DNA of 64,000 bases from Escherichia coli (GTDB taxonomy: Bacteria; Pseudomonadota; Gammaproteobacteria; Enterobacterales; Enterobacteriaceae). The DNA lies in NCBI RefSeq assembly GCF_003334335.1, contig NZ_QOWQ01000003.1; one strand, given 5' to 3'. This document shows positions 1 to 16,177 of this stretch, in pieces; position 1 is the first letter of the stretch; each line of letters opens with the position of its first letter. The notes beneath the pieces are model-generated. The model was not told the DNA's origin. It saw only the letters and a program-made list of their open reading frames with translations, and made no database searches. A program made the position numbers and the translations under genes.

Positions 1-76
1 ACGCGAGGCATCGTCTTAACGAGGCACCGAGGCGTCGCATTCTTCAGATGGTTCAACCCTTAAGTTAGCGCTTATG
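1..76 (+). mobile_element. IS186 (IS4 family) right end, partial at the window edge. The 23-bp terminal inverted repeat CAACCCTTAAGTTAGCGCTTATG lies at 54-76.
   Basis: Positions 1-76 match my recollection of the IS186 right end and finish in its terminal IR. The flanking target GGGTCAGGTCTCCCC fits the G-run/spacer/C-run target preference known for IS186. The terS-like reading frame loses its meaning exactly at 76/77. Confidence 0.75.
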
Positions 77-176
77 GGGTCAGGTCTCCCCGTTCCGCAA
101 GCTGCCGCGATTTTTCCCGCCACTGCTTCACGGCGATATCATCCAGGTAGGCGGGGGCTTTCGGTGGTCTTGCCAT
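77..176 (-). pseudogene. terS: 5' fragment (34 codons) of a P27-family small terminase gene, truncated by IS186.
   Basis: A minus-strand ATG at 174-176 (below the ORF-track size cut-off) gives MARPPKAPAYLDDIAVKQWREKSRQLAERGDLTP. This fits the N-terminal pattern of P27/Terminase_4 small terminases (RPPK, then L..A..W......L...G.LT). The frame runs straight into the IS186 IR, whose TAA (72-74) ends it. Confidence 0.55.
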
Positions 177-298
177 GCTTATTTTTCGTCAGATTATTTT
201 TCAAAAAATTCCCGTGCATAAAAATTTGGGGAGGCGTTCGGTGCCCGGCGGGGTCGGGTTTGTCCTGAAAACGCCCCCCACCCCGTCATACAGCCTCA

Positions 299-481
299 TC
301 AGCGATTGCGGAAACATTCCATAACCTCGCGGTCACGGTCGGTTAATCGCTTCGCTGTGATGCGTTCTGCGCGTCCTGACGCTTTATCTTTATGCCCTGT
401 TTCCTGTGTCTTCCATGCGTCACGCTGCCTTATAAGTCCACGGATAAGGCGGTTTTGTTCCCGCTCATTCATCAGCGTCAT
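299..481 (-). CDS. Hypothetical small protein (about 57-60 aa) between the HNH gene and terS.
   Basis: This is the 3' part of track ORF 299..703. An ATG at 481 (or 472) overlaps the HNH stop codon. The upstream part of the track ORF is just an alternative frame of the HNH gene. No family recognised. Confidence 0.35.
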   Translation of the reverse strand: MTLMNEREQNRLIRGLIRQRDAWKTQETGHKDKASGRAERITAKRLTDRDREVMECFRNR

Positions 482-905
482 ACATCCAGTTATTGCGGTT
501 AGCGGCCCGTTCTTCCTCTTCACGAAATCCACCTGCGGCACGCTTGCTTTTTGTTGCCGGATCAAGCCACTTCGTTTTCTGGTTATGACACGCCTGGCAC
601 AATGGCTGATGGTTCCATTCGGGCCAGAAGAGAACATCATCACCGCCATTAATCGGGATAATGTGATCCACCACCACGGCGGGCGTATATATCCCCTTCT
701 CAAGGCATCGCACGCATAACGGGTTTTTACTCAGATACATGGCGCGGTATTTTTCCCACTGTCTGGAGTACCCACGCGCGCGGCGGTGTCCTCGTCTGGC
801 ATCCTCTGCACGCCATGCCGCCCGCCTGTGCTCCTCACACTTGCCGGACTTAACGCGCCTGTTACAGCCTGGTTCTGTACATCGTCTTAATGGTTGCCAC
901 GGCAT
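465..905 (-). CDS. HNH endonuclease (packaging-associated).
   Basis: 146 aa with a Cys-rich N-terminus and an H-N-H core (VVDHIIPI ... WNHQPLCQACHNQKT). It sits immediately upstream of terS, as in HK97-like cos-packaging systems. Its start overlaps the preceding stop (ATGA). Confidence 0.85.
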   Translation of the reverse strand: MPWQPLRRCTEPGCNRRVKSGKCEEHRRAAWRAEDARRGHRRARGYSRQWEKYRAMYLSKNPLCVRCLEKGIYTPAVVVDHIIPINGGDDVLFWPEWNHQPLCQACHNQKTKWLDPATKSKRAAGGFREEEERAANRNNWMYDADE

Positions 906-1201
906 CAGTACACCCCCACATCACGGTAAGCCGTCCAGAGCGCGCCAATCGTCATGGGTACGCGCGTTTTTGCGTTATCCGCTACCAGCTGGCGATTCTC
1001 GTACAGGTGAGCGATAAACATCATGCAGCCAATCTTTATGGCTGGCGTGAACTCCAGCCCGTCATCAAAGCGCCTGCCTATATGTATCTGGCACGCCTCA
1101 AGCGATGCGGCAATGTATCCGCTGATTAACTGGTCTTCCTCGTCGCCATCGATGCGGCAATGGAGTTTCACTTCTTCCAGGGTGATAAGTTCTTCTGTCA
1201 T
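905..1201 (-). CDS. Head-tail connector protein (gp6-like, Phage_connect_1 type).
   Basis: 98 aa, MTEELITLEEVKLHCRIDGDEEDQLISGYIAA..., which is typical of gp6-like head-tail connector proteins. It is translationally coupled to both neighbours by 4-nt ATGA overlaps. Confidence 0.7.
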   Translation of the reverse strand: MTEELITLEEVKLHCRIDGDEEDQLISGYIAASLEACQIHIGRRFDDGLEFTPAIKIGCMMFIAHLYENRQLVADNAKTRVPMTIGALWTAYRDVGVY

Positions 1202-1536
1202 TTTTCCGCGCCCTCACGACAAAGAATTTCAAGGCGTGTCCTGGCGGCATCCGGCAGCGGTTGCCCGATGATATTCAGTACACGCCCCGCCAGCGGCCCC
1301 GTACTGACCTTTATCCGGCTGGTGGCGTTGATGTCCTTCCGGTACCGTATCCAGATCCTTACGGTACCAATCGCCAGCTCTGCACCCGATGAAATGGCCT
1401 CCTTGCTGCTGATCATGTTCACGCTTGCCCAGAGTGTGTGACCGTCCTCCCACGTTTCGAGTATTTCGCCGGTTATATCCCTGGTCTGTTTCAGGGTCTG
1501 AATCGTTACCCTGTCACGCAGTCGCCCTATGTTCAT
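1198..1536 (-). CDS. Head closure / head-tail adaptor protein (SPP1 gp16-like).
   Basis: Start taken at MNIGRLRDRVTIQ... (ATG 1534-1536, overlapping the portal stop). Length (112 aa) and the RDRVTIQ motif fit phage head-tail adaptor/head-closure proteins. Confidence 0.65.
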   Translation of the reverse strand: MNIGRLRDRVTIQTLKQTRDITGEILETWEDGHTLWASVNMISSKEAISSGAELAIGTVRIWIRYRKDINATSRIKVSTGPLAGRVLNIIGQPLPDAARTRLEILCREGAEK

Positions 1537-2744
1537 TCCGGTTTTTCTCCCTCGCTGATTTTTACTTCCTGTTTCCATGCCTGGCTGAACTCATCACCAC
1601 CATCACGCGGGGACAGCCCTTCACGTTCGCGGGCTTCGTTCGGGCACATAACGCCGGATTTGATGCCGCGTTCATAGGTGGCAAAGCGTTCGCCAGGTGT
1701 GGCCCGTAACAGGTCCGCGCTGTCAAACTCCACCTGATACCGGATACCAGGTACAGGCGAGGCCACCAGCAGGGCGTTTTTTATCTGCTGCTCAAAGTTC
1801 GCCAGCCACGGGCGCATTGTCATGGTGAGAAATGCGCGGCTTGCCTCGCTGAAATTGCTGTAGGTGCTGTTGCTGTATTCCTGCAGAAAAATCGGCGAGA
1901 CGTTGAACATTCGGGCGATGTCTTCAATGGTGAAGCGACGGGAGGCCAGCCATTCAGCATCCTGATTACTCATGCCCAGCTGCTGATAGCTCATACCCCC
2001 TTCAAGGATGGGCGTTTTTCCGGCGTTTCTGGCCCCTTTGTAGCGTTCCAGTGCGGCTAATGCCTGTTTGCCCTTCACGCCGTCCAGCCATTCGCCTGAC
2101 GTGATAACCCCTGCCGCCATCATGCCATCACGCATCACGCTCGCGCCGTGGCGTTGTTGGGCCAGCCCAAGCCCCAGCGATTCGCGGCAGATGGTTACAG
2201 GTGAGCGCCCCATAAAACCGTCATCCGTGGAGTAACGAAGGTGGAGAACCTCCCACGGTAAATAGTTGCGGGTGTTTCCGGTGTAGGCGTCAGTGATGCA
2301 GTAGCGCCAGTTGTGTTCGCCTGTCTGCTCCACGTTCACCGACTGCGGCGGGTAAGGATGTAAAGCCACCGGAAAACCATCACGCCCCCACTGAATCACC
2401 GCATAAGCATTACCGTTTAACAGGCAGTGGCGGATCATCATTCGCTTAAACTGGTAGGGAGTCTGCCACGCGTTCGGGCGCTCGTTGAGGATGTGATCGA
2501 CCGGATGAGAATCAAGCCACTCGCGGGCCTCCTTCCCCTTCTCATTGCGTACCAGGTACAGGTAACACGGCATGGTAGCCACCGCCTCAGAGATGACCGT
2601 CACGGCGTTCATGACGGCGGGCAGTGATTCCGCTGTCCCCGATGATACGTACTCACCCGCCCCCGTGTTCGATGTGCCAGCCAGCGCCATAAATTCATCA
2701 AGCGTCATGCTGCGCTGCTCTTTTTTTCTTCTGAAAAGCCACAT
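1533..2744 (-). CDS. Portal protein, HK97 family.
   Basis: 403 aa. The sequence and its position next to the prohead protease and HK97-type capsid gene fit HK97-family portals (Phage_portal). Confidence 0.85.
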   Translation of the reverse strand: MWLFRRKKEQRSMTLDEFMALAGTSNTGAGEYVSSGTAESLPAVMNAVTVISEAVATMPCYLYLVRNEKGKEAREWLDSHPVDHILNERPNAWQTPYQFKRMMIRHCLLNGNAYAVIQWGRDGFPVALHPYPPQSVNVEQTGEHNWRYCITDAYTGNTRNYLPWEVLHLRYSTDDGFMGRSPVTICRESLGLGLAQQRHGASVMRDGMMAAGVITSGEWLDGVKGKQALAALERYKGARNAGKTPILEGGMSYQQLGMSNQDAEWLASRRFTIEDIARMFNVSPIFLQEYSNSTYSNFSEASRAFLTMTMRPWLANFEQQIKNALLVASPVPGIRYQVEFDSADLLRATPGERFATYERGIKSGVMCPNEAREREGLSPRDGGDEFSQAWKQEVKISEGEKPE

Positions 2745-2745
2745 A

Positions 2746-3318
2746 TCACACCCCCGCTAAATCCACCCACCAGCGGCGATTATCCGCACGCGGCATTTTT
2801 TCGGGGTGCTGCTCATACAGGGAACGGCGGGCCAGCTCCACGCCGGAATCGGGGTAAGCCGGTACCGATGTAACGGTAATTTCGTACAGTTCCGCCACCA
2901 GCACGGTGCGCACGCATGGATCTGTTGTGGTATCCCATACATCCTTACGGGAGCGAAAGCCAAAGCTCATCCCCGAGATGTCCCCACGCTTAACCAGTTC
3001 GATAACGTCGCGCCCTGTACTGGTATCCGGTGGGGTCAGTTCAAAGCGTAACCCTGTTTCGTCCTCTTCCAGTTTCAGCGTGCCGGAACGGGTACGCCCC
3101 AGCAACATGCTGTGGTCATGCTCATACAGGCCGCGAACGTCATTACCCGCCGCAAGCCATTCAGTAAACGCTCCCCGCTGGAATTTTTCGTAAAACTCCC
3201 CCCATAGCAGCTCTGAAAGCTTATCCCAGCGAACAACGTAGCCTGTAAGCGTGTTGCTGGCGCTGGTGGTGATTTCCGATGACCGGATTTCCATACTCTT
3301 CATAATTTTTTCACCCAT
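2746..3318 (-). CDS. Prohead serine protease, HK97 family (Peptidase S78/U35).
   Basis: 190-aa track ORF. The more likely start is ATG 3303 (MKSMEIR, preceded by GGTGA). The family assignment rests on overall resemblance to HK97-family prohead proteases as I recall them and on its position between the capsid and portal genes. Confidence 0.85.
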   Translation of the reverse strand: MGEKIMKSMEIRSSEITTSASNTLTGYVVRWDKLSELLWGEFYEKFQRGAFTEWLAAGNDVRGLYEHDHSMLLGRTRSGTLKLEEDETGLRFELTPPDTSTGRDVIELVKRGDISGMSFGFRSRKDVWDTTTDPCVRTVLVAELYEITVTSVPAYPDSGVELARRSLYEQHPEKMPRADNRRWWVDLAGV

Positions 3319-3357
3319 AAAACACTAAAGGGGCTTTTAAGCCCCTTCTGTATGCTG

Positions 3358-4515
3358 TTAATCGTCGTCCTGTGGCAGTTCCAGAATCTTGATCGCGTTC
3401 GAATCCACCACGCCACCGCCTAAATATTTCTGCGTGAAAATTTTGATGAAGCCCGGCTCTGTGAGGTTGTCCGGTCTGGTGCGAACACCTGTTTCGTGAT
3501 CAACAATGTAGTAACCGCGTTTGAAGTCACCCAGGGCAATAACGTTATCAGGCATAAACTCCAGATATTCGACCGGAAGGCCCAGCAACGTATCAGGATC
3601 ACCCGCCTGTAAACGGTCACGCCAGATGTAATCACCGTTCGCGTTCTTCACCTTCTGGAGTTTTGCCGCCGTCGTGGAGTTAACCACCCAGACCGCGTTT
3701 TTGCGGTATTTTTTACGTAATGCAAATTTCAGGTCGATCAGCGGGTCCGCAGATGTCCACGCCAGAGATTCGGAAGGTTTAATTACCTGCAACGTACCAA
3801 AATCACGCTCTTTGTCGTTCTTCTCTGCACGGGGTACGGATAAAAAGCCTTTTGCTTTTTTGTCACCGTCGCCCACAACCAGATCGCTTTCTTCGGTTTC
3901 CGTGAAGGTGTCGCCAATCTCGCCCGTCAGCCATGAAAGGATGTCCACATCGGAAAAATCCACGATTTCCTGTGTGGTGCGCGGGTACGCATAGACCGGA
4001 TACAGCTTAATGCTCACCTCGTTAATCTGCGGGGTGCTGGTCTGTTCGCGTGTCTTACCCTCTTCACCGTGGTTAACGGTCGCACCGCCAGCGGAAACAA
4101 GCTGCTTAAACTCGTTGCTGCTGATTTTCTTCACGGTACAGATGCGGCGCATGGTGGATTCATCCGTCAGCATTCGCATGATTTCGGTGTTCAGTTCGGG
4201 GATAACGGTATAACCACCATCAGCGGGAACGCCTGTACTTAATGCGCGGGTTTCACCTGTCAGGATGTAGTTGCGGAGTTCTGCCGGGTCAGTGGTCTGG
4301 CTGCTTTTACCTGGCTTGCTGCGCTCTTCGTCTGCAATGGCTTCAAGGCGGGAAATGTCTTTATCGAGGGATTCAGCTTTAGCGCGTAATTCGTCAAATG
4401 TTGCGCCCTCAGCATCGTTAAGACTGCGGTTTTCTTTTTCCGCGTTCTCCAGCATGTCGCGCATCTGATTTTTAATGGCGGTTTTCTGCTGGCGTAATTC
4501 GATTATTCTCGGCAT
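3358..4515 (-). CDS. Major capsid protein, HK97 family, with an N-terminal scaffolding (delta) domain.
   Basis: 385 aa. A coiled-coil-rich N-terminal stretch of about 100 aa is followed by an HK97-fold-like body. This is typical of HK97-type capsid proteins that need no separate scaffold. Confidence 0.9.
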   Translation of the reverse strand: MPRIIELRQQKTAIKNQMRDMLENAEKENRSLNDAEGATFDELRAKAESLDKDISRLEAIADEERSKPGKSSQTTDPAELRNYILTGETRALSTGVPADGGYTVIPELNTEIMRMLTDESTMRRICTVKKISSNEFKQLVSAGGATVNHGEEGKTREQTSTPQINEVSIKLYPVYAYPRTTQEIVDFSDVDILSWLTGEIGDTFTETEESDLVVGDGDKKAKGFLSVPRAEKNDKERDFGTLQVIKPSESLAWTSADPLIDLKFALRKKYRKNAVWVVNSTTAAKLQKVKNANGDYIWRDRLQAGDPDTLLGLPVEYLEFMPDNVIALGDFKRGYYIVDHETGVRTRPDNLTEPGFIKIFTQKYLGGGVVDSNAIKILELPQDDD

Positions 4516-4554
4516 AAAAAAAGTCCTGGGGTTAAGTAAGGAACTCCAGGACGC
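4516..4554 (-). terminator. Terminator-like hairpin immediately upstream of the capsid ATG. Its 3' arm contains the capsid Shine-Dalgarno sequence.
   Basis: The minus-strand RNA reads GCGTCCTGG-AGTTCCTTACTTAACC-CCAGGAC-TTTTTTT-ATG. That is a 7-bp stem (4523-4529 / 4546-4552), a 16-nt loop and a U7 run. AGGA lies inside the 3' arm, 8 nt before the ATG. Confidence 0.45.
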
Positions 4555-4707
4555 GGCAAAAACTCAACCGTTTTTCATAAGGAAATCAGCAATCGCACCG
4601 ATCGTTTTCCCGCCTGGTAATGAATATTGGCGAGAACATTAACAGGCGGAAAAGTGGCCCCAGCGTCCTGGCACCACGGGCGAGAATAATCATGATTCAG
4701 TTCGGGT

Positions 4708-4755
4708 AAAATATGCCGATCCTGTCAGTGAACAACGTGGAACAACCGCGAACAA
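4708..4755 (-). promoter_or_regulatory. Candidate promoter of the packaging/capsid operon with three helically phased direct repeats.
   Basis: GAACAA on the plus strand (TTGTTC on the minus strand) occurs at 4730, 4740 and 4750, exactly 10 bp apart. The proximal copy sits at a -35 position, 16 bp from a TATTTT -10-like hexamer (4708-4713, minus strand). Confidence 0.35.
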
Positions 4756-4773
4756 ATAATTTACAAAAAATGA

Positions 4774-4796
4774 CAAAAAGCCGGATTGCTCCGGCT
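4774..4796 (-). terminator. Rho-independent terminator after the 74-aa orphan gene.
   Basis: Minus strand: AGCCGGA-gcaa-TCCGGCT followed by TTTTTGTCATTTTTT. Confidence 0.75.
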
Positions 4797-4806
4797 GTAT
4801 GCGTGC

Positions 4807-5031
4807 TCAGTCCCTGATCCCTTTCAGAAATTCTATCAATGCATCTATCTGTTCAGGATTTACCGCCAGCATTTCACCGGACAGAGCACATCTCACAAAA
4901 CCATGCTGATCCTTTTCAATCAGTGCGCCCGTCTCCAGGAATGCGCGGTAATCATTGATGCTCATCGTCTCCATGTTGTCAGCATGGTATTTATCACGCT
5001 GTTTTAATATCTCATCAAATTTCATCGGCAT
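4807..5031 (-). CDS. Hypothetical protein (74 aa) in a stand-alone cassette.
   Basis: Track ORF 4807..5109. The preferred start is ATG 5031 (MPMKFDEILK...), preceded by GAGGAAAA. It is bracketed by two near-identical terminators. No family recognised. Confidence 0.55.
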   Translation of the reverse strand: MPMKFDEILKQRDKYHADNMETMSINDYRAFLETGALIEKDQHGFVRCALSGEMLAVNPEQIDALIEFLKGIRD

Positions 5032-5125
5032 TGTTTTTTCCTCTGTTGTGTCTGTTTGTTTCAGATAGTAACTATGCCTGACCGTGACGAAAACCCGGTA
5101 ATGCGCCATACCGTTTCAACTGGTG

Positions 5126-5150
5126 CAAAAAAAGCCGGATTTCTCCGGCT
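5126..5150 (-). terminator. Rho-independent terminator after the perC-like gene.
   Basis: Minus strand: AGCCGGA-gaaa-TCCGGCT followed by TTTTTTTG. The stem is identical to the terminator at 4774-4796. Confidence 0.75.
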
Positions 5151-5156
5151 GTGTGA

Positions 5157-5429
5157 TTAGCTGTCCTGGTAATTTCGCCATATTTCATCACCAGCACCAT
5201 CCATACCCATTTCGGCATAAGTGCGATCGACCGCCTTTTTCAGGTCTCCGTAATTATCCGGCGGCTCCGGTGGCCTCTGTGCCTTCCTGGAACATTCCAG
5301 CCGTCGCATCGTAACCTGATGCCGTTCCTTGTCTGTCTCCACCAGCAGCATGACTTCACCCCATCGCGCCGACGCCCTCCGGTAAAAGCCTTTTGCCTCG
5401 AGTTCCTCCGCTATGCGGTCATGTACCAT
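5157..5429 (-). CDS. PerC-family transcriptional regulator-like protein (90 aa).
   Basis: Start taken at MVHDRIAEELEAKGFYRRASARWGEVM... (ATG 5427-5429, RBS GAGGGGG, 10 nt after the ssb stop). The AEELE..G.YRRA..RW.EV motif resembles PerC/Pch proteins. Confidence 0.6.
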   Translation of the reverse strand: MVHDRIAEELEAKGFYRRASARWGEVMLLVETDKERHQVTMRRLECSRKAQRPPEPPDNYGDLKKAVDRTYAEMGMDGAGDEIWRNYQDS

Positions 5430-5439
5430 CGTCACCCCC

Positions 5440-5850
5440 TCAGAACGGAATATCATCACCGTAGGGGTCATCGTCTCCCGCTGGTGGCTGATTACCCTGT
5501 GTGCCTGTGGTTTTGCGTCTGTTCCCGCCAGGACGTGCCGCACGGGCACTGATTACGCTGTCTGCAATAACCTGATACCCCTGTCGTGTTTCCCCGTTCT
5601 GTCCGGTCCACTGGCTTACCTGCATCGTGCCGGATACGCTGGCAACATCGCCTTTTTGATGTTTAGCCAGGAAATCGGCCTGTTTGCCAAATGCGATAAC
5701 CGATAACCATAACGTCGCCTGTCCGTCATGTGCTTGGCTGCATGGCAACGATACCGCCATACGCGCCAGAGTCATCGGTGTGCCCTTGCTGCTCTGTTTT
5801 ACCAGCGGGTCGTCCACCAGGCGCCCGTAAGCTGCAATTTGTGCTGTCAT
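5440..5850 (-). CDS. ssb: Single-stranded DNA-binding protein.
   Basis: 136 aa with an OB-fold-like N-terminus, a Gly/Pro/Gln-rich linker and the diagnostic acidic tail DDDPYGDDIPF. Confidence 0.9.
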   Translation of the reverse strand: MTAQIAAYGRLVDDPLVKQSSKGTPMTLARMAVSLPCSQAHDGQATLWLSVIAFGKQADFLAKHQKGDVASVSGTMQVSQWTGQNGETRQGYQVIADSVISARAARPGGNRRKTTGTQGNQPPAGDDDPYGDDIPF

Positions 5851-5859
5851 ATTGCCACC

Positions 5860-6165
5860 TCAGTGAAGCGATCCGGCGTTGTTCTTTTTCATCTCTTCCA
5901 TCATTTTTTCAGTGAGCATTACGCACTGAAAACCCATGTTTTTGATGTCTACGGGTTTCATGCCTTTGTCAGTGGATATCACAGGCAGAATATCCTGATA
6001 CACATCGCGGTCAGGGTAACTAAGCACACAAAGCGCCCATGATGCCACGGGTGAGGATCCTTCGTCTGTTTCAACCCACCAGCCTGGTGTAGCTGCGCTT
6101 ATTTGCTGAATCGTGATCCGTCCGTTGTGCTTGTAAAGTTTTTCACCAAATTTTGGTTCGCTCAT
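5860..6165 (-). CDS. Hypothetical protein (101 aa).
   Basis: Track ORF in the same operon. Its start overlaps the upstream stop by 4 nt (6162-6165). No family recognised. Confidence 0.5.
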   Translation of the reverse strand: MSEPKFGEKLYKHNGRITIQQISAATPGWWVETDEGSSPVASWALCVLSYPDRDVYQDILPVISTDKGMKPVDIKNMGFQCVMLTEKMMEEMKKNNAGSLH

Positions 6166-6413
6166 GATTCCAACTCTCCGGTTTTAACGTTGATTGTTGT
6201 TACCTGTTCCGCTTCGGCAATCTCACGTTCTGTCAGCGTGGCAAAGTTTGCCGCTGCTGTGGTCATGAATGCGCTTATCAGGTCGGGATGTTCTTTCGCG
6301 TATCCTTCCCCCGCGTGGCGGTCTATCGTTCTGATTGCCACCTTTAAGGCGTGCTCTGTCATGTCTAACGCTTTATATTTTGGCTCTGTTCTGTCTCTGT
6401 GTTTTTGAGTCAT
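6162..6413 (-). CDS. Hypothetical protein (83 aa).
   Basis: Track ORF 6162..6545. The start is moved to ATG 6413 (MTQKHRDR...) because the upstream 44 codons lie in the iteron array. Confidence 0.45.
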   Translation of the reverse strand: MTQKHRDRTEPKYKALDMTEHALKVAIRTIDRHAGEGYAKEHPDLISAFMTTAAANFATLTEREIAEAEQVTTINVKTGELES

Positions 6414-6617
6414 TTGCCCACCTCTACCCACTTTTTTCGCCCACTTTTTACGTTTTCCCACTTCGTCCAACGTGGGAAATTTGGGATTTATATCATCTTG
6501 TTTCATAGGTATTTTTTTAGTGCCCACTTTTTGGGATATATACACGTGGGAAAGTGGGTAATTTTGTTAAAATTACGTTAAATCGCCCACCTTTCCCACT
6601 TTTAATGCCCACTTTTT
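6414..6617. repeat. Iteron array, the probable satellite origin of replication.
   Basis: There are 11 copies of the core CCCAC(T/C)TT. Eight are direct (about 6416, 6427, 6439, 6456, 6522, 6585, 6594, 6607), several as GCCCACTTTTT. Three are inverted (6472, 6546, 6554). They flank an AT-rich spacer (6480-6521). The array starts on the stop codon of the rep helicase gene. Confidence 0.7.
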
Positions 6618-8013
6618 ACAGTGGTCCTACATCATCACCGTCAATGTAGATCACGTCGTCTTTTTCCAGTTTGGCTAACCATCGTTTAAGGTGTTTTGTG
6701 TCATACCCCAGCTTTTTCATATCGTCACGTAACAGCGGGATCGTGCACTTGTCGCCGTGCTGTGTGCGTGAACGTATGCACCCCCATAGCGCGGTATGGT
6801 TTTCCGTCTTGTTGCCTGCCTCCTCGATGCGCTCCAGTTCAACGGGAGGGCGCGGCTTATCCACCACCACCAGCGACGTGATTAACTCCCCGTCAGCGTC
6901 GGTAAAAAGCTCCACCACCCGCAAATCATAGGCAGCCTCTTTGAGTTCCTCCGCGTCCTTCATTTTGGTGCATGAGATAACCAGCGCTTCGCTTCCTGCG
7001 TCCTCCCTGCGTATCCGGTATTCAGCATCCAGCGAAGCACGAAATGCACTGGAACCGCGCGCGCCTTTCGTCTCATCCTTGCCGGAATGGTGAACCACCA
7101 GCACCGTGGCCCCTGTGCGCCGTTTAAGCTCGTCACACCCACGGATAAACGCCCCCATATCACGGGAATCATTTTCATCATTGCCACCAAAGCAACGCGC
7201 CAGAGTATCAAGAATAATCATGCGTACAGGTTTACCCGTTTCCCGCTCCACCTGACGGGCAGCGATAACCAGTTCATCAACATCAAGCGGGACAGCCGGA
7301 AAAACTGGACGGTTTACCAGATACAGATTTTTCACCTGCTCACCGTGCACAACCTCCCAGGCTTTTACACGACGCGGAACGCCGATACCGCCTTCACCAA
7401 CCACATAGAGAACAGCGCCATGCGCCACCCTGCGGCCTCCCCACTGGCGGCCCGTGGAAACGTGACACGCCCACGAACCCGCAAGGAATGATTTATAGGA
7501 ACCGCTTGCCCCGTATATGCTGCATAGCGACGATGCCGGAATAATCCCCTTTACCACGTAATCTAATTGCGTGTCGTATCCGGCAGATCCAACGCTCATC
7601 GGTAGCGTGGTTTTTCGCTGGTGGTGTTCTTCCCCTGGCTTTTTCCCCCGCTCCCGTTCCAGATATTCGCGCCAGTTCTCCCGCTTCTGGCTGTGTATCC
7701 CTTCGGGGTAATAATTCGCATCAGTTACGCCCGCCGCCGCCAGCTTGTGCGCAATGGCATTAATATTTGATGGCCTGATGTGGCCTGCCTTGTACAGCCG
7801 GACACAATAGCGCCCCTCGTCGATGATTCTCAGGTCTGCCAGTTCATCCAGTTGATCATCAGCCAGCACAATGGGAGGCACATTATCGCCAGCCAGTCGC
7901 CCGTCCTGTTCCTGCCACTGTTTCGCATGTGCCCACGCATCACTACCCGCAAAAATGATGACTTCGGTCATCTTGTCGTAAGGCTGTTTTTTTAAGTTCG
8001 GTGCGCTTTTCAT
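6616..8013 (-). CDS. Replication initiator/helicase, RepA-like (AAA_25 / RecA-fold ATPase).
   Basis: 465 aa with Walker A GASGSYKS and Walker B MIILD, followed by VVHHSGKDETKGARGSS, typical of RepA/AAA_25 helicases of plasmids and satellites. I could not recognise a primase (toprim/EGYATA) motif in the N-terminal 150 aa. Confidence 0.8.
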   Translation of the reverse strand: MKSAPNLKKQPYDKMTEVIIFAGSDAWAHAKQWQEQDGRLAGDNVPPIVLADDQLDELADLRIIDEGRYCVRLYKAGHIRPSNINAIAHKLAAAGVTDANYYPEGIHSQKRENWREYLERERGKKPGEEHHQRKTTLPMSVGSAGYDTQLDYVVKGIIPASSLCSIYGASGSYKSFLAGSWACHVSTGRQWGGRRVAHGAVLYVVGEGGIGVPRRVKAWEVVHGEQVKNLYLVNRPVFPAVPLDVDELVIAARQVERETGKPVRMIILDTLARCFGGNDENDSRDMGAFIRGCDELKRRTGATVLVVHHSGKDETKGARGSSAFRASLDAEYRIRREDAGSEALVISCTKMKDAEELKEAAYDLRVVELFTDADGELITSLVVVDKPRPPVELERIEEAGNKTENHTALWGCIRSRTQHGDKCTIPLLRDDMKKLGYDTKHLKRWLAKLEKDDVIYIDGDDVGPL

Positions 8014-8309
8014 TTCTTGCCCCTGAATCCGTTAATCATGTTTTTCATCTTCTGAATATTGGCGCGTGCTTTCTCCCTGCTGGTGGGCACGTTACGCGGT
8101 ACGGCCTGCACCAGAGAAAAATCACGCCGGAACTGATAAACAGGCATCACGCAATCATATTCGTAACTTTCACGACGGTAGGTTACGCGCCGTTCCTCCA
8201 CGCCCTTAATCATTACCGTGCCGCCGTACTGGTCGCGGTAAATATCACCGCGCGTAAATTTAGGGTGAGTGTTGCCACTGGCAGTTAAGCCAGAATATTT
8301 AAGTTTCAT
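8010..8309 (-). CDS. Small protein (99 aa), possibly DUF4222-like.
   Basis: Track ORF whose stop overlaps the rep start (8010-8013). The central YRD..G..V.I..V...RVTYRRE.YE..CVMP...F motif resembles prophage DUF4222 proteins. The family call is tentative. Confidence 0.5.
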   Translation of the reverse strand: MKLKYSGLTASGNTHPKFTRGDIYRDQYGGTVMIKGVEERRVTYRRESYEYDCVMPVYQFRRDFSLVQAVPRNVPTSREKARANIQKMKNMINGFRGKK

Positions 8310-8314
8310 TATTT

Positions 8315-8548
8315 TTATTCTCCGGTGTGCTGTTCGTTATATCTGTCGTGCAATGTCTCTATTTCTTGTAGTTCCATTATTACAGGCTCAAGAAGCGTTA
8401 TTAATGCCGTGACAATTCTTGATTTTTGTTTGTCGCGTTCATTGTCGCCAAGTGTTTCAAGCCATATGCGCAATATTTCCAGCATGTTTTCACTGTGAGA
8501 AAGTGCAAGAAATACGCGTTCTGTTGTTTCGTGGTAAATATCACGCAT
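8315..8548 (-). CDS. Hypothetical protein (77 aa).
   Basis: Track ORF in the co-oriented early operon. No family recognised. Confidence 0.45.
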   Translation of the reverse strand: MRDIYHETTERVFLALSHSENMLEILRIWLETLGDNERDKQKSRIVTALITLLEPVIMELQEIETLHDRYNEQHTGE

Positions 8549-8620
8549 GGCTTACATCCTCAGGAAATTTTCTTCTGTAACGCGCCTCTGCCACATATTC
8601 CGCATAATCGGCGGCGATAT

Positions 8621-8773
8621 TCAGTACATCAAGCCCGTTGATTTATATTCTCTCGTGGAAAGTAAGAAAAAAGCCGCTCTAATAAGTTCTGGCATTGACG
8701 AAAGCGCATCAGCCGCATCATCAGGAACGCCGGAAAATTCTTGTTTCAGGGAATTAAAACGATCATCACGCAT
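8621..8773 (-). CDS. Hypothetical protein (about 50 aa).
   Basis: Track ORF 8621..8821. The start is placed at MRDDRF (ATG 8773), which overlaps the upstream stop (ATGCGTGA). Weak call. Confidence 0.3.
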   Translation of the reverse strand: MRDDRFNSLKQEFSGVPDDAADALSSMPELIRAAFFLLSTREYKSTGLMY

Positions 8774-8996
8774 AACCCCCCCCATTTTCACAATCAGCAA
8801 CAAGAATATTTTTAGCGTCATTCAGCGACCGCGTTGCGGTGTATCGGATACATTCCAGGGCGAATAGTGTGTATTCTTCCCTTTCTTCCCTTTCTTCCTT
8901 TTGTGCAAGCTCTGCTGTGCATTCAATATCAATAAGCGCGTGCATCAGCGTAGTGAGTGCGGCGGCGGCTGCGTCCGGTGTGGTTTTATTGCACAT
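8766..8996 (-). CDS. Hypothetical acidic protein (76 aa).
   Basis: Track ORF 8766..9050. The start is placed at MCNKTT (ATG 8996), preceded by GGAGGGG. It contains an EEREEREE acidic stretch. Confidence 0.4.
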   Translation of the reverse strand: MCNKTTPDAAAAALTTLMHALIDIECTAELAQKEEREEREEYTLFALECIRYTATRSLNDAKNILVADCENGGGYA

Positions 8997-9216
8997 GTAC
9001 CCCTCCGCATTTTTTTTCGTTAGAAATAAGCGTTCTTCTTTCCTGTTCATCGATCAGGAATACGCAGACCTCACCGCTAAGGCGTTTAAGTAAGCCGATG
9101 ATTGCCCCTGATTCGCTGTCGGTCATCATGCCTGGGTAATCCTCTGCCAGTGCGCAAATAACTTCGATTTGGTGGGCGCGTTCTGCTGCCTGTTGTAGTG
9201 TGATTTCCTGGCTCAT
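8986..9216 (-). CDS. Hypothetical protein (76 aa).
   Basis: Track ORF. Its ATG overlaps the stop of the icd-like gene (ATGA at 9213-9216). Confidence 0.45.
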   Translation of the reverse strand: MSQEITLQQAAERAHQIEVICALAEDYPGMMTDSESGAIIGLLKRLSGEVCVFLIDEQERRTLISNEKKCGGVHVQ

Positions 9217-9413
9217 AAGCCTACCCCCTGACGAATACGGGCAGCGAATACCATCACGCAGCCAGCCGGGGATTGCAGGCGTGCTTCCTGTTCGCTGGTG
9301 GCCTCAATGGTAATCACGCGCGGTTGTGCAGTGCTCAGGGCGATAAAACGCCAAATGTATTTATTCAGGTTGTGCGAGTCCCGCCCTTGCGGGTGTGTGG
9401 TATGATTTCTCAT
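9213..9413 (-). CDS. Icd-like (P4-type cell division inhibitor-like) small protein, 66 aa.
   Basis: These are the last 66 codons of the 340-aa track ORF (MRNHTTHPQGRDSHNLNKYIWRFIAL...), with a GAGG RBS. They resemble proteins annotated as Icd-like in P4-like elements, as I recall them. This is the first gene downstream of the leftward promoter. Confidence 0.55.
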   Translation of the reverse strand: MRNHTTHPQGRDSHNLNKYIWRFIALSTAQPRVITIEATSEQEARLQSPAGCVMVFAARIRQGVGL

Positions 9414-9510
9414 AGCTACCTCGATACTCTCGTTATCGTTGGTGGTTAGAAGCCCGGTTAGTGTTAGCGCACTGCCGGGTTTCGTCGTTTCTGCACCTTG
9501 CGCCAACAAG

Positions 9511-9583
9511 GTGTTGAACACCAATTTAAACCCAGGTGTTAAACACGTCAAGTGTTGAACACTTATTTTTTTTCCTGCATACT
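9511..9583. promoter_or_regulatory. Back-to-back divergent promoters with three 11-bp palindromic operators.
   Basis: GTGTTGAACAC lies at 9511-9521, GTGTTAAACAC at 9536-9546 and GTGTTGAACAC at 9552-9562. The leftward promoter has -35 TTGACG (9546-9551) and -10 TAAATT (9523-9528) with a 17-bp spacer. The rightward promoter has -35 TTGAAC (9555-9560) and -10 CATACT (9578-9583) with a 17-bp spacer. Confidence 0.6.
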
Positions 9584-9612
9584 GCATTTGTTTTTTATGA
9601 GGGGTACACCAC

Positions 9613-9792
9613 ATGGCGACAAAAGCAGTAAACGCAAAATCACAAACCGTTGCGGCAAGGGTTCCGCATGAAGTTATGAACAATGTTGAGGCGGTAAAAA
9701 TGCCTGGCGAAAGTACGGGGCAATTTGTTACTGCAGCATTAAAACGAGAAGTTGAATATCGCCAGCGGCGCAAGGCCAAAGAACCAGAGTAA
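9613..9792 (+). CDS. Ribbon-helix-helix (CopG/Arc-like) DNA-binding protein, 59 aa. Candidate satellite repressor.
   Basis: Not in the ORF track (<60 aa). ATG at 9613 with GAGGGG upstream. MATKAVNAKSQTVAARVPHEVMNNVEAVKMPGESTGQFVTAALKREVEYRQRRKAKEPE shows the strand / helix / G-x-S-x / helix pattern of RHH proteins. It is the only plus-strand gene next to the operators. Confidence 0.55.
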   Translation: MATKAVNAKSQTVAARVPHEVMNNVEAVKMPGESTGQFVTAALKREVEYRQRRKAKEPE

Positions 9793-9849
9793 TCACCATC
9801 AGCGCCGTGGTGTAAGGTATTACGGCGCATTGCTATGCAGGACAACACA

Positions 9850-10023
9850 ATGACCGATAAAGAATTGACCAAAACATTATCACCGGCACGGAAAAGACGG
9901 CGCAGAAAGATAGAGCATGAATCAGAAAGATTCGCGCCATGTGCTTTTGCCCTTGAGCAATTCCTTAAAGAGTACAGGGAAAAGCGCTCATTGCAGGTAT
10001 GGCAACGAACTGAACCAGACTGA
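9850..10023 (+). CDS. Hypothetical basic protein (57 aa).
   Basis: Track ORF 9835..10023. ATG 9850 has AGGA 7 nt upstream. It carries an RKRRRRK stretch and is co-oriented with the RHH gene, before a strong terminator. Confidence 0.35.
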   Translation: MTDKELTKTLSPARKRRRRKIEHESERFAPCAFALEQFLKEYREKRSLQVWQRTEPD

Positions 10024-10118
10024 TAGCATTGCCCACCAGCCTGATAGCGACTATCATTGCCGTTCTTATGTTTGGGATCACACACACAAACGGCGCAGCG
10101 GGTTATCTGTTCAGAAAG

Positions 10119-10146
10119 GCGGCTCCATTTCGGGGCCGCTTTTTTT
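10119..10146 (+). terminator. Rho-independent terminator of the short rightward (RHH) transcription unit.
   Basis: GCGGCTCC-atttc-GGGGCCGC (8-bp stem with one G-U pair) followed by TTTTTTT. Confidence 0.75.
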
Positions 10147-10292
10147 ATACCTGAAAAACCCCAATTTTGTTGTTTTTCAGTTTCACCAGGGCGAACGAAT
10201 CCCCGCCCACGTTCTGGCGTATATTCAATCTTCATGGTTATAGCTCTGTGTTCAGATGATTGATGTGTGGCGGCTGCGTGCCGCCAGCGTGA

Positions 10293-10481
10293 TTAATGAA
10301 CTGCCTTGCAGCTATCCTTCCAGGCCAGAACCTCGGATAAAGACCAGCCAACGGAACGACCGCCAAGTTTACGACGTGATGGGAATTGTCCGGCCTTTTC
10401 CAGGCGGTAGCGACACGTACGGCTAAGGCCGGTTAGTTTTTCGCATTCTTTTTCACGTATAAACCGATCAGTGCTTAACAC
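10293..10481 (-). CDS. alpA: AlpA-family (MerR-type HTH) phage/satellite transcriptional regulator.
   Basis: The C-terminal 62 aa read LSTDRFIREKECEKLTGLSRTCRYRLEKAGQFPSRRKLGGRSVGWSLSEVLAWK, a classic AlpA signature. The likely start is GTG 10481, preceded by AGGGGGG. The track ORF extends to ATG 10562. Confidence 0.8.
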   Translation of the reverse strand: MLSTDRFIREKECEKLTGLSRTCRYRLEKAGQFPSRRKLGGRSVGWSLSEVLAWKDSCKAVH

Positions 10482-10632
10482 TATTGCCCCCCTTTCGTTT
10501 CTTAAAGAGTCATCAGGTGTCTTATTGTGTCGTATTGTTCCCGCTAGAGTGATGAATGGCAAATATTGAGGATGTATTATTTACAGAAAATGAAACAGTA
10601 AGAATAAAATCTTTTAAATTCATGTTAATACA

Positions 10633-10665
10633 AAGGCATAAAATATTGTTTCATGCCTTTTTTTT
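10633..10665 (+). terminator. Orphan terminator-like hairpin on the plus strand in the int-alpA intergenic region.
   Basis: AAGGCATAAAA-tattg-TTTCATGCCTT (one mismatch) followed by a T-run ending at 10665. No plus-strand gene lies upstream, so the function is unknown. Confidence 0.4.
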
Positions 10666-10813
10666 CGCTCTTTAAAGAGTGATTCGCTAGTGTATAAAAA
10701 ACCAGTGACACATTAAAAATCAGCCACTTATAAATCTGTATGCTTTTTCGCCTCTTGTTCGTGGTTGTTCCACATTGTTGCTCATTGTTGCACGTTGTAT
10801 CTGTTCGCATATC

Positions 10814-10829
10814 CAGTATGCGCATACTG
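10814..10829. promoter_or_regulatory. Perfect 16-bp palindrome CAGTATGCGCATACTG just downstream of int. Candidate protein-binding site.
   Basis: The palindrome is seen directly. No U-run follows on either strand, so it is not a canonical terminator. Confidence 0.3.
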
Positions 10830-10846
10830 AAAAAACACGAAAAAAA

Positions 10847-12076
10847 TTATTTTCTTCTGGCTACGGGTAGCGTGGTTACGTTTTCATGTGTTCCCGCCAG
10901 TATCCCTAACCGCTCCGTCCACATATCCAGCGCATTGCGTTTAGCATCCAGATAACGGGAATGATTATAAACTCGCTGCATTCCTGGCATCTGGTGGCCT
11001 GTAAGCTGCTCCACGACATGCGGATCAACGCCTAAATCGTTCAGCATGGTTGTAAAGGTGCGCCGGATGTCATGCAGTGACCAGTGAGGATGATTAAGCC
11101 TCCTGTGCGCTAATCTTCCATACTGCGATACGCTGGCCTCCTGTTTCACTTCCCCCAGCAATAAGCCCGTGTGCCTGTTCTGCTCCACCAGCTGCGTGAC
11201 GAACGGCAGGATCGCTTCCGGTATGGGCCGGAATATTGCGACCTTCGTTTTGCTGTGCTCCTTCGGAACGGTCCATAGCATTTCCGTAAAATCCCACTCC
11301 CCGATCTCCGATAACCTCAGTTCTACCGTTCTGGCTCCGAAGACAATCAGGAGGCGGATTAACGCGACGTAGTAAGGGGAGAATATTTTTTTGTCCAGTG
11401 CCTGCAATAATTCGCCAAGTTCTTTGTTACTTAAGACACGTTCGCTTATATCCGGTTTTTTCCCAACGTCCGCCACGTTCAGATCGTCCAGAACGTTGCT
11501 GATTGCATAGCGCCGCCTACGGCAGAACTTAAGCGCCTGTTTGCACGCCTGTAGCACGAATCCGGCAGTAACAGGCGTTCGCTTTGCCACCTGGTCAAAA
11601 CAGGCCAGCCAGTGCCGTAGCTCGCATTTATCCAGCGGCATAGCACCAATCTGCTGTATTACGTGATTATTAAGTCGCCTTTTCAGGGCGATATAATCCA
11701 CGCGGTTTTCCTTTACGTAATACTCAAGCCAGTAGGTGAGCGCATCGCCAACCGTTACGGGCTTTAACGCTTCCTGTACGGTGTAATTCATCTCATGACG
11801 TGGATTTTTCCCCTCAGCCAGCCATGTGCGACACTGTGCGGCTTTTTCCCTGGCTGCTTTCAGGCTCAGATCAGGATAACTTCCCAGCTTAATGCGTTCG
11901 GGTCGTGTCTCCCTTCCCGTTCCGGCCCTGTATGTGAAATACCAGGTCAATTTCCCTGATGTTAAATATTTCACGCTCAGGTTTCCGCCATCACTATAAA
12001 ACGTGTTTTTCTCCGCTGGCTTACCATGAAGTTTCCTTAGCAAGGTATCGCTCAGTTTGTTCATTGCTCTGCTCAC
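10847..12076 (-). CDS. int: Tyrosine integrase, P4-like (DUF4102 N-terminal domain).
   Basis: 409 aa. It has tyrosine-recombinase catalytic-type motifs (GARTVELR, HDIRRT, YNHSRY). The GTG start at 12076 is preceded by GAGGGGG. It lies adjacent to the junction with tqsA. Confidence 0.92.
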   Translation of the reverse strand: MSRAMNKLSDTLLRKLHGKPAEKNTFYSDGGNLSVKYLTSGKLTWYFTYRAGTGRETRPERIKLGSYPDLSLKAAREKAAQCRTWLAEGKNPRHEMNYTVQEALKPVTVGDALTYWLEYYVKENRVDYIALKRRLNNHVIQQIGAMPLDKCELRHWLACFDQVAKRTPVTAGFVLQACKQALKFCRRRRYAISNVLDDLNVADVGKKPDISERVLSNKELGELLQALDKKIFSPYYVALIRLLIVFGARTVELRLSEIGEWDFTEMLWTVPKEHSKTKVAIFRPIPEAILPFVTQLVEQNRHTGLLLGEVKQEASVSQYGRLAHRRLNHPHWSLHDIRRTFTTMLNDLGVDPHVVEQLTGHQMPGMQRVYNHSRYLDAKRNALDMWTERLGILAGTHENVTTLPVARRK

Positions 12077-12099
12077 GTTTTACCCCCTCTTTACGAAAA

Positions 12100-12123
12100 A
12101 GTGACTACACCAGTGACTACACC
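12100..12123. repeat. Tandem 12-bp repeat AGTGACTACACC x2 between int and the att junction. Candidate integrase arm-type sites.
   Basis: Exact tandem duplication seen at 12100-12111 and 12112-12123, within the 175 bp that separate the int start from the tqsA junction. Confidence 0.4.
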
Positions 12124-12251
12124 GATCGTTGCACAAAGGGCTACAACGTGAAACAAGCTGGAACAAGGAAAATCACAAATCTGTTGATAATCAAAAACAT
12201 AATGCACAGCCTGAAACATTATGAAACAGCAAAAAACACTAAATGATAAAA

Positions 12252-13158
12252 TGCTGTTATTCTTAACCCGCTGGTGCAACACATGGTCCGCTGGCGTGTG
12301 CCGCGTGTACTGGCGGTGTCGATTTTGATGACCATCATCGTGATGGCGATGGTGTTGCTATTAGCTTATCTGGGTTCCGCGCTCAACGAGTTGACGCGGA
12401 CGTTACCGCAATATCGCAACTCTATTATGACGCCGCTGCAAGCGCTTGAAGCGTTGTTGCAACGCGTAGGGATTGACGTCTCAGTTGACCAGCTGGCGCA
12501 TTATATTGATCCGAACGCGGCGATGACGTTGCTCACCAACTTATTGACGCAGTTATCTAATGCCATGTCATCAATATTTTTATTGCTGCTGACGGTGCTG
12601 TTTATGCTGCTCGAAGTGCCACAATTGCCCGGAAAATTTCAGCAAATGATGGCGCGTCCGGTTGAAGGGATGGCGGCGATTCAACGTGCGATTGACAGTG
12701 TTTCTCATTATCTGGTGCTGAAAACAGCCATCAGCATCATCACCGGCCTGGTCGCCTGGGCGATGCTCGCCGCACTCGATGTTCGCTTCGCTTTTGTCTG
12801 GGGATTGCTGGCCTTTGCGCTTAATTACATCCCGAATATTGGTTCAGTCCTCGCGGCAATCCCCCCTATCGCTCAGGTACTGGTGTTTAATGGCTTCTAC
12901 GAAGCGTTGCTGGTGCTGGCGGGATATCTGCTGATTAATCTGGTCTTCGGCAATATTCTGGAGCCGCGTATCATGGGGCGTGGGCTGGGGCTTTCCACAT
13001 TGGTGGTATTTTTGTCGTTGATTTTTTGGGGATGGTTGTTAGGACCGGTGGGTATGCTGCTTTCCGTGCCGTTGACAATTATTGTCAAAATTGCGCTTGA
13101 ACAAACAGCGGGAGGTCAAAGCATCGCCGTTCTGTTAAGCGATCTCAATAAAGAGTGA
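12252..13158 (+). pseudogene. tqsA: tqsA (AI-2 exporter, AI-2E family), 5'-truncated by the satellite insertion.
   Basis: From 12253 the frame reads [22 protein letters not shown]... to the normal C-terminus ...VLLSDLNKE, matching K-12 TqsA from about residue 44 onward. An in-frame TAA lies at 12247-12249 with non-homologous island DNA upstream. Only a GTG (12274) or ATG (12283) restart is available. Confidence 0.85.
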
Positions 13159-13182
13159 CGGCCTCAGCAGAGGCCGTCAGGG

Positions 13183-14574
<1,392 letters not shown>

Positions 14575-14581
14575 TTACCCC

Positions 14582-16177
<1,596 letters not shown>

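Follow-up and report, generated by a model that had tools for sequence, protein, structure and literature searches.

The window analysed here, a 64-kb stretch of Escherichia coli DNA, opens with the right end of an IS421 copy. Positions 76-12251 belong to one mobile element, all recognisable genes of which lie on the minus strand. The island extends from a truncated terS gene through packaging, head, replication and regulatory genes to a tyrosine integrase, and is followed, after a short integrase-proximal arm, by the 3′ part of tqsA on the plus strand (Table 1). Comparison loci are cited below as L001 (K-12), L002 (strain 300709), L003, L004 (phoQ/roxA site) and L005 (IS421).

Table 1. Features of the island and of the tqsA junction, in window coordinates.
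Feature	Position	Strand	Basis
Right end of an IS421 (IS4-family) copy inside island terS	1..75	.	Terminal inverted repeat 54-75
Truncated TerS, P27 family; 33 of 118 codons, then one IS-derived codon, stop 72-74	75..176	-	Matches H19 TerS residues 1-33
HNH endonuclease, packaging module	465..905	-	Pfam HNH E 1.8e-8; phrog_144 E 8.6e-45
Head-tail connector (adaptor)	905..1201	-	Pfam Phage_connect_1; phrog_40, head-tail adaptor Ad1
Head completion / head closure protein	1198..1578	-	Pfam Phage_HCP E 5e-23; phrog_25
Portal protein	1533..2744	-	Pfam Phage_portal E 9e-91; phrog_12
HK97-type prohead protease	2746..3318	-	Pfam Peptidase_S78 E 4e-48
HK97-fold major capsid protein	3358..4515	-	Pfam Phage_capsid E 2e-61; phrog_10
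PerC-family transcriptional activator, island cargo	5157..5549	-	Pfam PerC E 8e-44
Single-strand DNA-binding protein	5440..5850	-	Pfam SSB E 6.5e-16
RepA-type helicase, island replication protein	6616..8013	-	Pfam AAA_25 E 1.7e-44; phrog_2850 full length; phrog_906 DNA polymerase/primase
DUF4222 protein	8010..8309	-	Pfam DUF4222 E 6e-23; beside the replication gene likewise in L002, L003 and L004
AlpA-family regulator/excisionase	10293..10562	-	Pfam Phage_AlpA E 1.5e-16; phrog_2790 excisionase and transcriptional regulator; 189-nt version in the annotation of relatives
Tyrosine integrase, P4-type domain layout, 409 aa, GTG start	10847..12076	-	Pfam Arm-DNA-bind_3 E 1.4e-18, Phage_integrase E 2.9e-16
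Integrase-proximal arm, island side of attR	12077..12251	.	Between int start and core; absent from K-12, conserved in L002 and L003
Arm module, ca. 80-100 bp, with tandem 12-mers, TGCAC motif, GAAACA/GGAACA repeats	12089..12190	+	Recurs in opposite arm
Tandem pair of the 12-mer AGTGACTACACC, candidate arm-type integrase sites	12100..12123	+	Copies at 12100-12111 and 12112-12123
Island-borne TGA and TAA in tqsA frame	12244..12249	+	Reading frame
att core TGCTGTTAT, 9 bp, tqsA nt 129-137, codons 43-46	12252..12260	+	Overlap of attL and attR in relatives
tqsA 3′ part, promoterless, codons 44-344 and stop	12253..13158	+	NCBIfam PRK12287, E 6e-173, profile positions 52-344; aligns to residues 44-344 of PDB 7nb6

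Results

When window 12077-13158 was compared by megablast with 5,426 complete E. coli genomes, most of them, K-12 included, matched from query base 176 only, that is from window 12252. Direct comparison with the K-12 locus returned a single block, in which window 12252-14658 aligned to L001:1501-3907 with 99.96% identity, and no further K-12 sequence from the tqsA locus in the whole 64-kb window. K-12 tqsA is 1035 nt long and starts at L001:1373, which places window 12252 at nt 129 of the gene and makes Ala44 (12253-12255) the first tqsA codon to be whole in the window. The initial annotation, made from the sequence before any search, had put the beginning of tqsA homology at about 12252 and about residue 44, and the alignment bears this out. 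Just 5′ of the core the island contributes two stop codons in the tqsA frame, the TAA at 12247-12249 that had been noticed before and, directly ahead of it, a TGA at 12244-12246. GTG 12274 and ATG 12283, pointed out earlier as possible starts of a truncated reading frame, both proved to lie in the tqsA frame. The distance of 175 bp given for the integrase gene was likewise accurate, since the int ORF, on the minus strand, starts at 12076 and leaves 12077-12251 up to the junction. The remnant differed from K-12 TqsA by one substitution, P110A, and PGAP annotates it in relatives as a pseudogene without N-terminus. With two stops and no island-borne N-terminus, the claim that a protein-coding gene is interrupted here and not made good by the incoming DNA stood: at the level of sequence, a site-specific insertion of a satellite inside tqsA, splitting the gene near codon 44, was confirmed. 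A plus-strand ORF at 11959-12246 was considered as an island-borne N-terminus that would restore tqsA; it stops at the TGA/TAA and overlaps the int start, and was judged spurious. The substituted residue 110 (window 12580-12582) is found at the periplasmic end of helix H3.

The extent of the attachment core could be read from two relatives, strains H19 and 300709, in which the left island end holds the tqsA promoter and 5′ end, annotated by PGAP as a pseudogene missing its C-terminus. At this end tqsA is unbroken through nt 137; at the right junction it restarts at nt 129. Because attL thus keeps tqsA nt 1-137 and attR begins at nt 129, the core is the 9-bp sequence TGCTGTTAT, the direct repeat that had been expected from 12252 onward. 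The published core ATAACAGCA is its reverse complement. Rejoining the attL and attR halves of H19 and 300709 at the core in silico gave 344 aa identical to K-12 TqsA, and therefore precise excision would restore tqsA. That the first 43 or so codons sit at the other end of the island, as the initial annotation supposed, was correct for H19 and 300709, where they lie at the left end. The window island itself runs off the left edge, and sequence comparison found no tqsA 5′ sequence in the whole 64 kb. Its attL would join the tqsA 5′ fragment to the island at TTATTGCTGTTAT/ATATAAC, i.e. TTATTTATTGCTGTTAT/ATATAAC (the stroke marking the joint), and the intact attB sequence after excision would be TTATTGCTGTTATTCTTAAC.

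The arm between int and the core carries the tandem repeat that had already been singled out as a pair of candidate arm sites. L002, L003 and L004 have the pair of 12-mers, with the same 12-bp spacing and orientation, in each of the two island arms; recurring thus in both arms of three related islands, it is not a chance repeat. Outside this pair, the plus strand of the 64-kb window had no copy of the 8-mer ACTACACC. An alignment of six left and right arms (A1) had a mean column identity of 79% with long invariant blocks, and the invariant blocks of the arm module were common to tqsA-type and phoQ-type islands. The 12-mers are laid out like arm-type sites and, judging from this layout only, may be bound by the integrase. 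The right arm also contains a 37-nt imperfect direct repeat (12143-12179 and 12206-12242) built of TGCAC and GAAACA/GGAACA elements. Repeats of these elements were seen in both arms compared (window 12089-12242 and L003:3095-3200); they could be sites for AlpA/excisionase or for a host factor.

The gene content of the island comprised int, alpA and rep of PICI type and a head module of its own, with major capsid protein, protease, portal and head-tail connectors. In the packaging module hnh was present and IS421 interrupted terS behind its codon 33; the rest of terS and terL, which relatives possess, would lie outside the window. Gene set and order are those published by Alqurainy et al. (bioRxiv 10.1101/2022.09.08.507074). 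Tail and lysis genes were found neither among the scanned ORFs of 76-12076 nor in the annotated relatives, and no scanned island ORF had a Pfam or PHROG match to Psu, Sid, Delta or alpha-primase. The integrase matched NCBIfam PRK09692 weakly, with 52 bits against a cut-off of 434. Judged by its genes, the island is a capsid-forming PICI (cf-PICI) and not the P4-like satellite that the initial annotation implied; the P4-type layout is confined to the integrase. The PerC gene among its cargo is of relevance given that the carriers include strains labelled O26:H11, O103 and O111. A 340-aa open frame at 9213-10235 matched the Icd-like/repressor family phrog_6196 over its last 90 or so residues only; in relatives, this region is annotated as an Icd-like pseudogene, with a small gene of the YlcI/YnfO family at 9613-9792 on the other strand.

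The left end of the island is out of sight, since the window begins within the IS421 copy that interrupts terS. Bases 1-78 had 8,423 matches, spread over 2,144 E. coli genomes. The L005 copy of this sequence follows an IS421 transposase gene and closes an element whose inverted ends, ATAAGCGCTAACTTAAGGGTTG, are 22 bp long and whose target duplication measures 13 bp; the duplication made in the terS of this island would lie around GGGGTCAGGTC. A P27-family terminase small subunit is annotated at the TerS position in relatives. The IS421-terS junction was present in none of the complete E. coli genomes of the collection, and the 34-aa truncated TerS ORF was found in five draft contigs, all of which end at the IS junction. 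From its sequence, packaging of this island copy is probably blocked by the insertion; int, alpA and the arm that lies inside the window are undamaged. Five draft assemblies had contig ends at the same terS position, one of them in an island whose replication gene differs (D5_N/Pox_D5 primase), which suggests that terS of cf-PICIs is a recurrent hot spot for IS421. The target flanking IS421, GGGGTCAGGTCTCCCC, has the form GGGG-N8-CCCC. One match to window 1-75 was annotated ltrA, and the end of a group II intron was considered for these bases. This was rejected: IS421 itself sits in ltrA there, and the 75 bases are an IS421 end with its 22-bp inverted repeat. An Rfam search of window 1-13200 at the gathering threshold gave no match.

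Among related islands, the 15.3-kb tqsA island of H19 shared 97% DNA identity with the window island over 97% of the latter's length. The O157:H7 island between phoQ and roxA, which we take to be EcCIEDL933, was about 94% identical. The integrase was identical at all 409 positions (409/409) to that of the 11-kb tqsA island of 300709, at 99.5% to that of H19 and at 91.0% to the phoQ/roxA-site enzyme. Both the 11-kb and the 15-kb island types sit at the identical tqsA nucleotide. As the 11-kb island, with its identical integrase, occupies the same nucleotide, we consider tqsA a dedicated site used by different elements. In the 300709 island (L002:9216-20176) both the replication gene (DNA primase family) and the capsid gene are of another kind, a head decoration gene is present, and portal, protease and terminase are missing from the annotation. 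Set against window 76-12251, its annotated gene content shows modules exchanged behind a fixed int-att unit. The tqsA-site and phoQ/roxA-site integrases (10847-12076 and L004:18374-19603), 91% identical, act at unrelated published cores (ATAACAGCA and GGACATATTT) with conserved arm modules, and 18 of their 37 differences fall within the first 66 residues, in the arm-binding domain; they form a compact natural pair for the study of a change in core specificity.

For the frequency of the insertion, a 240-bp probe over the intact K-12 site and an equivalent probe over the attR junction of the window were used. The intact site was covered in 5,170 of the 5,426 complete E. coli genomes and the attR junction in 247 (4.6%). 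Many of the best-matching carriers were O26:H11, O103 and O111 strains, accompanied by unrelated human, pig and environmental isolates. In a scan of one genome per species, a 25-mer spanning the island end and the core had 0 matches; the arm-site pattern found the Shigella flexneri representative, with an island at the phoQ/roxA site, and five hits in unrelated taxa. With no match to the 25-mer and the S. flexneri island at phoQ/roxA, these scans provide no evidence for use of the tqsA site across species.

As to the TqsA protein, the part cut off comprises, in the solved structure of the pentameric transporter (PDB 7nb6, 344 aa), helix H1 and one half of helix H2, and promoter and start codon go with it; the loss is thus larger than the first transmembrane segment named in the initial annotation. 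The split falls within the conserved AI-2E_transport domain. A crude scan of 11900-12500, of little weight either way, revealed no sigma-70-like promoter for int or for the tqsA remnant, transcription of int points away from the remnant, and inspection of the sequence upstream of GTG 12274 and ATG 12283 showed nothing resembling a Shine-Dalgarno sequence. From the sequence we infer, with good support, that tqsA would have lost its function for as long as the island is resident. In K-12, deletion of tqsA is reported to raise intracellular AI-2, lsr expression, motility and biofilm (Herzberg 2006).

Discussion

The best overall explanation of these data, in which we have high confidence, takes window 12077-12260 as the attR junction of a cf-PICI. 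An integrase of P4-type layout recombined the attP of the island with the 9-bp core at tqsA codons 43-46. Integration parted codons 44-344 from the first 43 codons and the promoter of tqsA, the island side adding the two in-frame stops and no replacement N-terminus. Upon induction by a helper phage, AlpA would be expressed, and Int, probably with AlpA, would excise the island at the core. This would rebuild an intact tqsA, normally in a cell about to lyse. Induction and transfer of Gram-negative PICIs need alpA, which the helper phage turns on (bioRxiv 10.1101/2022.09.08.507074), and because of this requirement we expect excision to be coupled to the lytic cycle of the helper and not to a surviving cell. 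The outcome in carrier lineages would be a stable, heritable loss of tqsA, and a stable natural tqsA knockout is the likely state of the carriers.

Two other readings concern the nature of the element and the fate of the remnant. An accidental insertion of a P4-like satellite at a secondary, non-tRNA site could call upon the Arm-DNA-bind_3 and Phage_integrase layout typical of P4-type integrases and upon the AlpA/Vis-like gene in the island. However, no scanned island ORF matches Psu, Sid, Delta or alpha-primase, and the island has a full HK97-type head module instead. The junction is moreover identical in 247 genomes and in published PICIs, and tqsA is therefore a dedicated primary site and not an accident, so that we give this reading hardly any credence. 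It is also very improbable, if slightly less so, that the insertion is nearly neutral for AI-2 export, with an internal start at GTG 12274 or ATG 12283 still yielding a partly functional, N-truncated transporter. A 294-aa ORF is indeed open from GTG 12274 and retains the greater part of the Pfam domain (profile positions 40-326). Yet neither a promoter-like site in 11900-12500 nor Shine-Dalgarno-like bases before either start were seen, int is transcribed in the direction away from the remnant, and PGAP calls the remnant a pseudogene.

Less improbable than these two, although still unlikely, is the idea of regulated gene integrity or active lysogeny, in which the island would excise and re-integrate in surviving cells on a signal, with the switching of TqsA, AI-2 export and biofilm as its selected function. 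The disruption of the AI-2E_transport domain in a gene that is not restored, the use of one and the same nucleotide by different islands, and the undamaged halves, which on rejoining give the wild-type protein, are compatible with such a switch. The same kind of evidence placed tqsA among the 19 new candidates of Mageeney (2020), and a tqsA deletion is reported to raise intracellular AI-2, biofilm and motility (Herzberg 2006). The requirement for alpA, however, couples excision to lytic growth of the helper, and the resident prophages of EDL933 failed to induce the prototype cf-PICI (bioRxiv 10.1101/2022.09.08.507074). The many O26:H11, O103 and O111 strains among the best-matching carriers point to stable vertical inheritance, and over such short divergence intact halves weigh little. 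A literature search found no report of excision without lysis, nor of a phenotype of natural tqsA::PICI strains. Because PICI excision depends on helper-phage induction, a reversible quorum-sensing switch is unlikely, and we keep the stable knockout as the preferred reading.

The tqsA site, its core and the idea of regulated gene integrity are already known from the literature. The PICIs EcCI042 and EcCIK1516 were assigned to an attC site in tqsA with core ATAACAGCA (Fillol-Salom et al. 2018, ISME J, Table S1), and tqsA is among the core genes disrupted by prophage integration (Bobay et al. 2013). The window island shares with these two PICIs the target gene, the 9-bp core and the PICI family; with EcCI042, which lists perC among its accessory genes, it also shares PerC. 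EcCI042 and EcCIK1516 are, however, classical PICIs of about 11 kb without head module, as in strain 300709, whereas the window holds the 15-kb capsid-forming type with terS broken by IS421. Specific to the window is thus this cf-PICI variant with IS421 in terS. The prototype cf-PICI, EcCIEDL933, has the same gene order (int, alpA, rep, capsid, protease, portal, connectors, hnh, terS); it is induced by a helper via AlpA and packaged in its own small capsids, which are joined to helper tails (bioRxiv 10.1101/2022.09.08.507074). At the ycfD-phoQ site the published core is GGACATATTT (Fillol-Salom et al. 2018). The O157:H7 island with its 91% identical integrase occupies this intergenic phoQ/roxA (ycfD) site and breaks no gene, whereas the window island splits tqsA.

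Closest to the present analysis in kind are the elements Eco282.16.tqsA, Eco33.11.tqsA and Eco557.15.tqsA, listed as candidates for regulated gene integrity with mention of quorum sensing (Mageeney et al. 2020, NAR). For these TIGER elements the gene, the domain disruption without restoration and the switch hypothesis are the same as here; that study, too, was computational and gave no phenotype. We read the numbers 16, 11 and 15 in their names as kb, in which case they would agree with the 11-kb and 15-kb types described above. Known cases of regulated gene integrity are the prophage insertions in mlrA of E. coli and comK of Listeria (Mageeney 2020). As in tqsA, a mobile element lies within a coding gene that is tied to biofilm or to a trait of development and that can become whole again through precise excision. 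For mlrA and comK, however, excision or a phenotypic effect was shown by experiment, and comK excision occurs without lysis, whereas the tqsA PICI is helper-dependent, and we know of nothing comparable for it.

Conclusion

As a discovery our analysis adds little, since the site, the core and the hypothesis are already in print; in the main it bears out what the initial annotation had read from the sequence. Its meaning lies in the carriers: to judge by sequence, some 4.6% of the complete E. coli genomes, strains labelled O26:H11, O103 and O111 among them, are natural tqsA knockouts, and the insertion could matter when AI-2 signalling or biofilm is compared between strains. It is doubtful that a PICI in tqsA serves as selected, reversible control of AI-2 export, with low-level excision, helper-free or after abortive helper induction, restoring TqsA in a surviving subpopulation. 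If this were true, the subpopulation would change AI-2 retention, lsr expression and biofilm, and lineages such as O26:H11 would keep both tqsA halves intact for the sake of this control. All in all, the carriers of tqsA islands offer a ready natural system in which the published, unproven idea of gene integrity regulated by mobile elements at tqsA may be tested.
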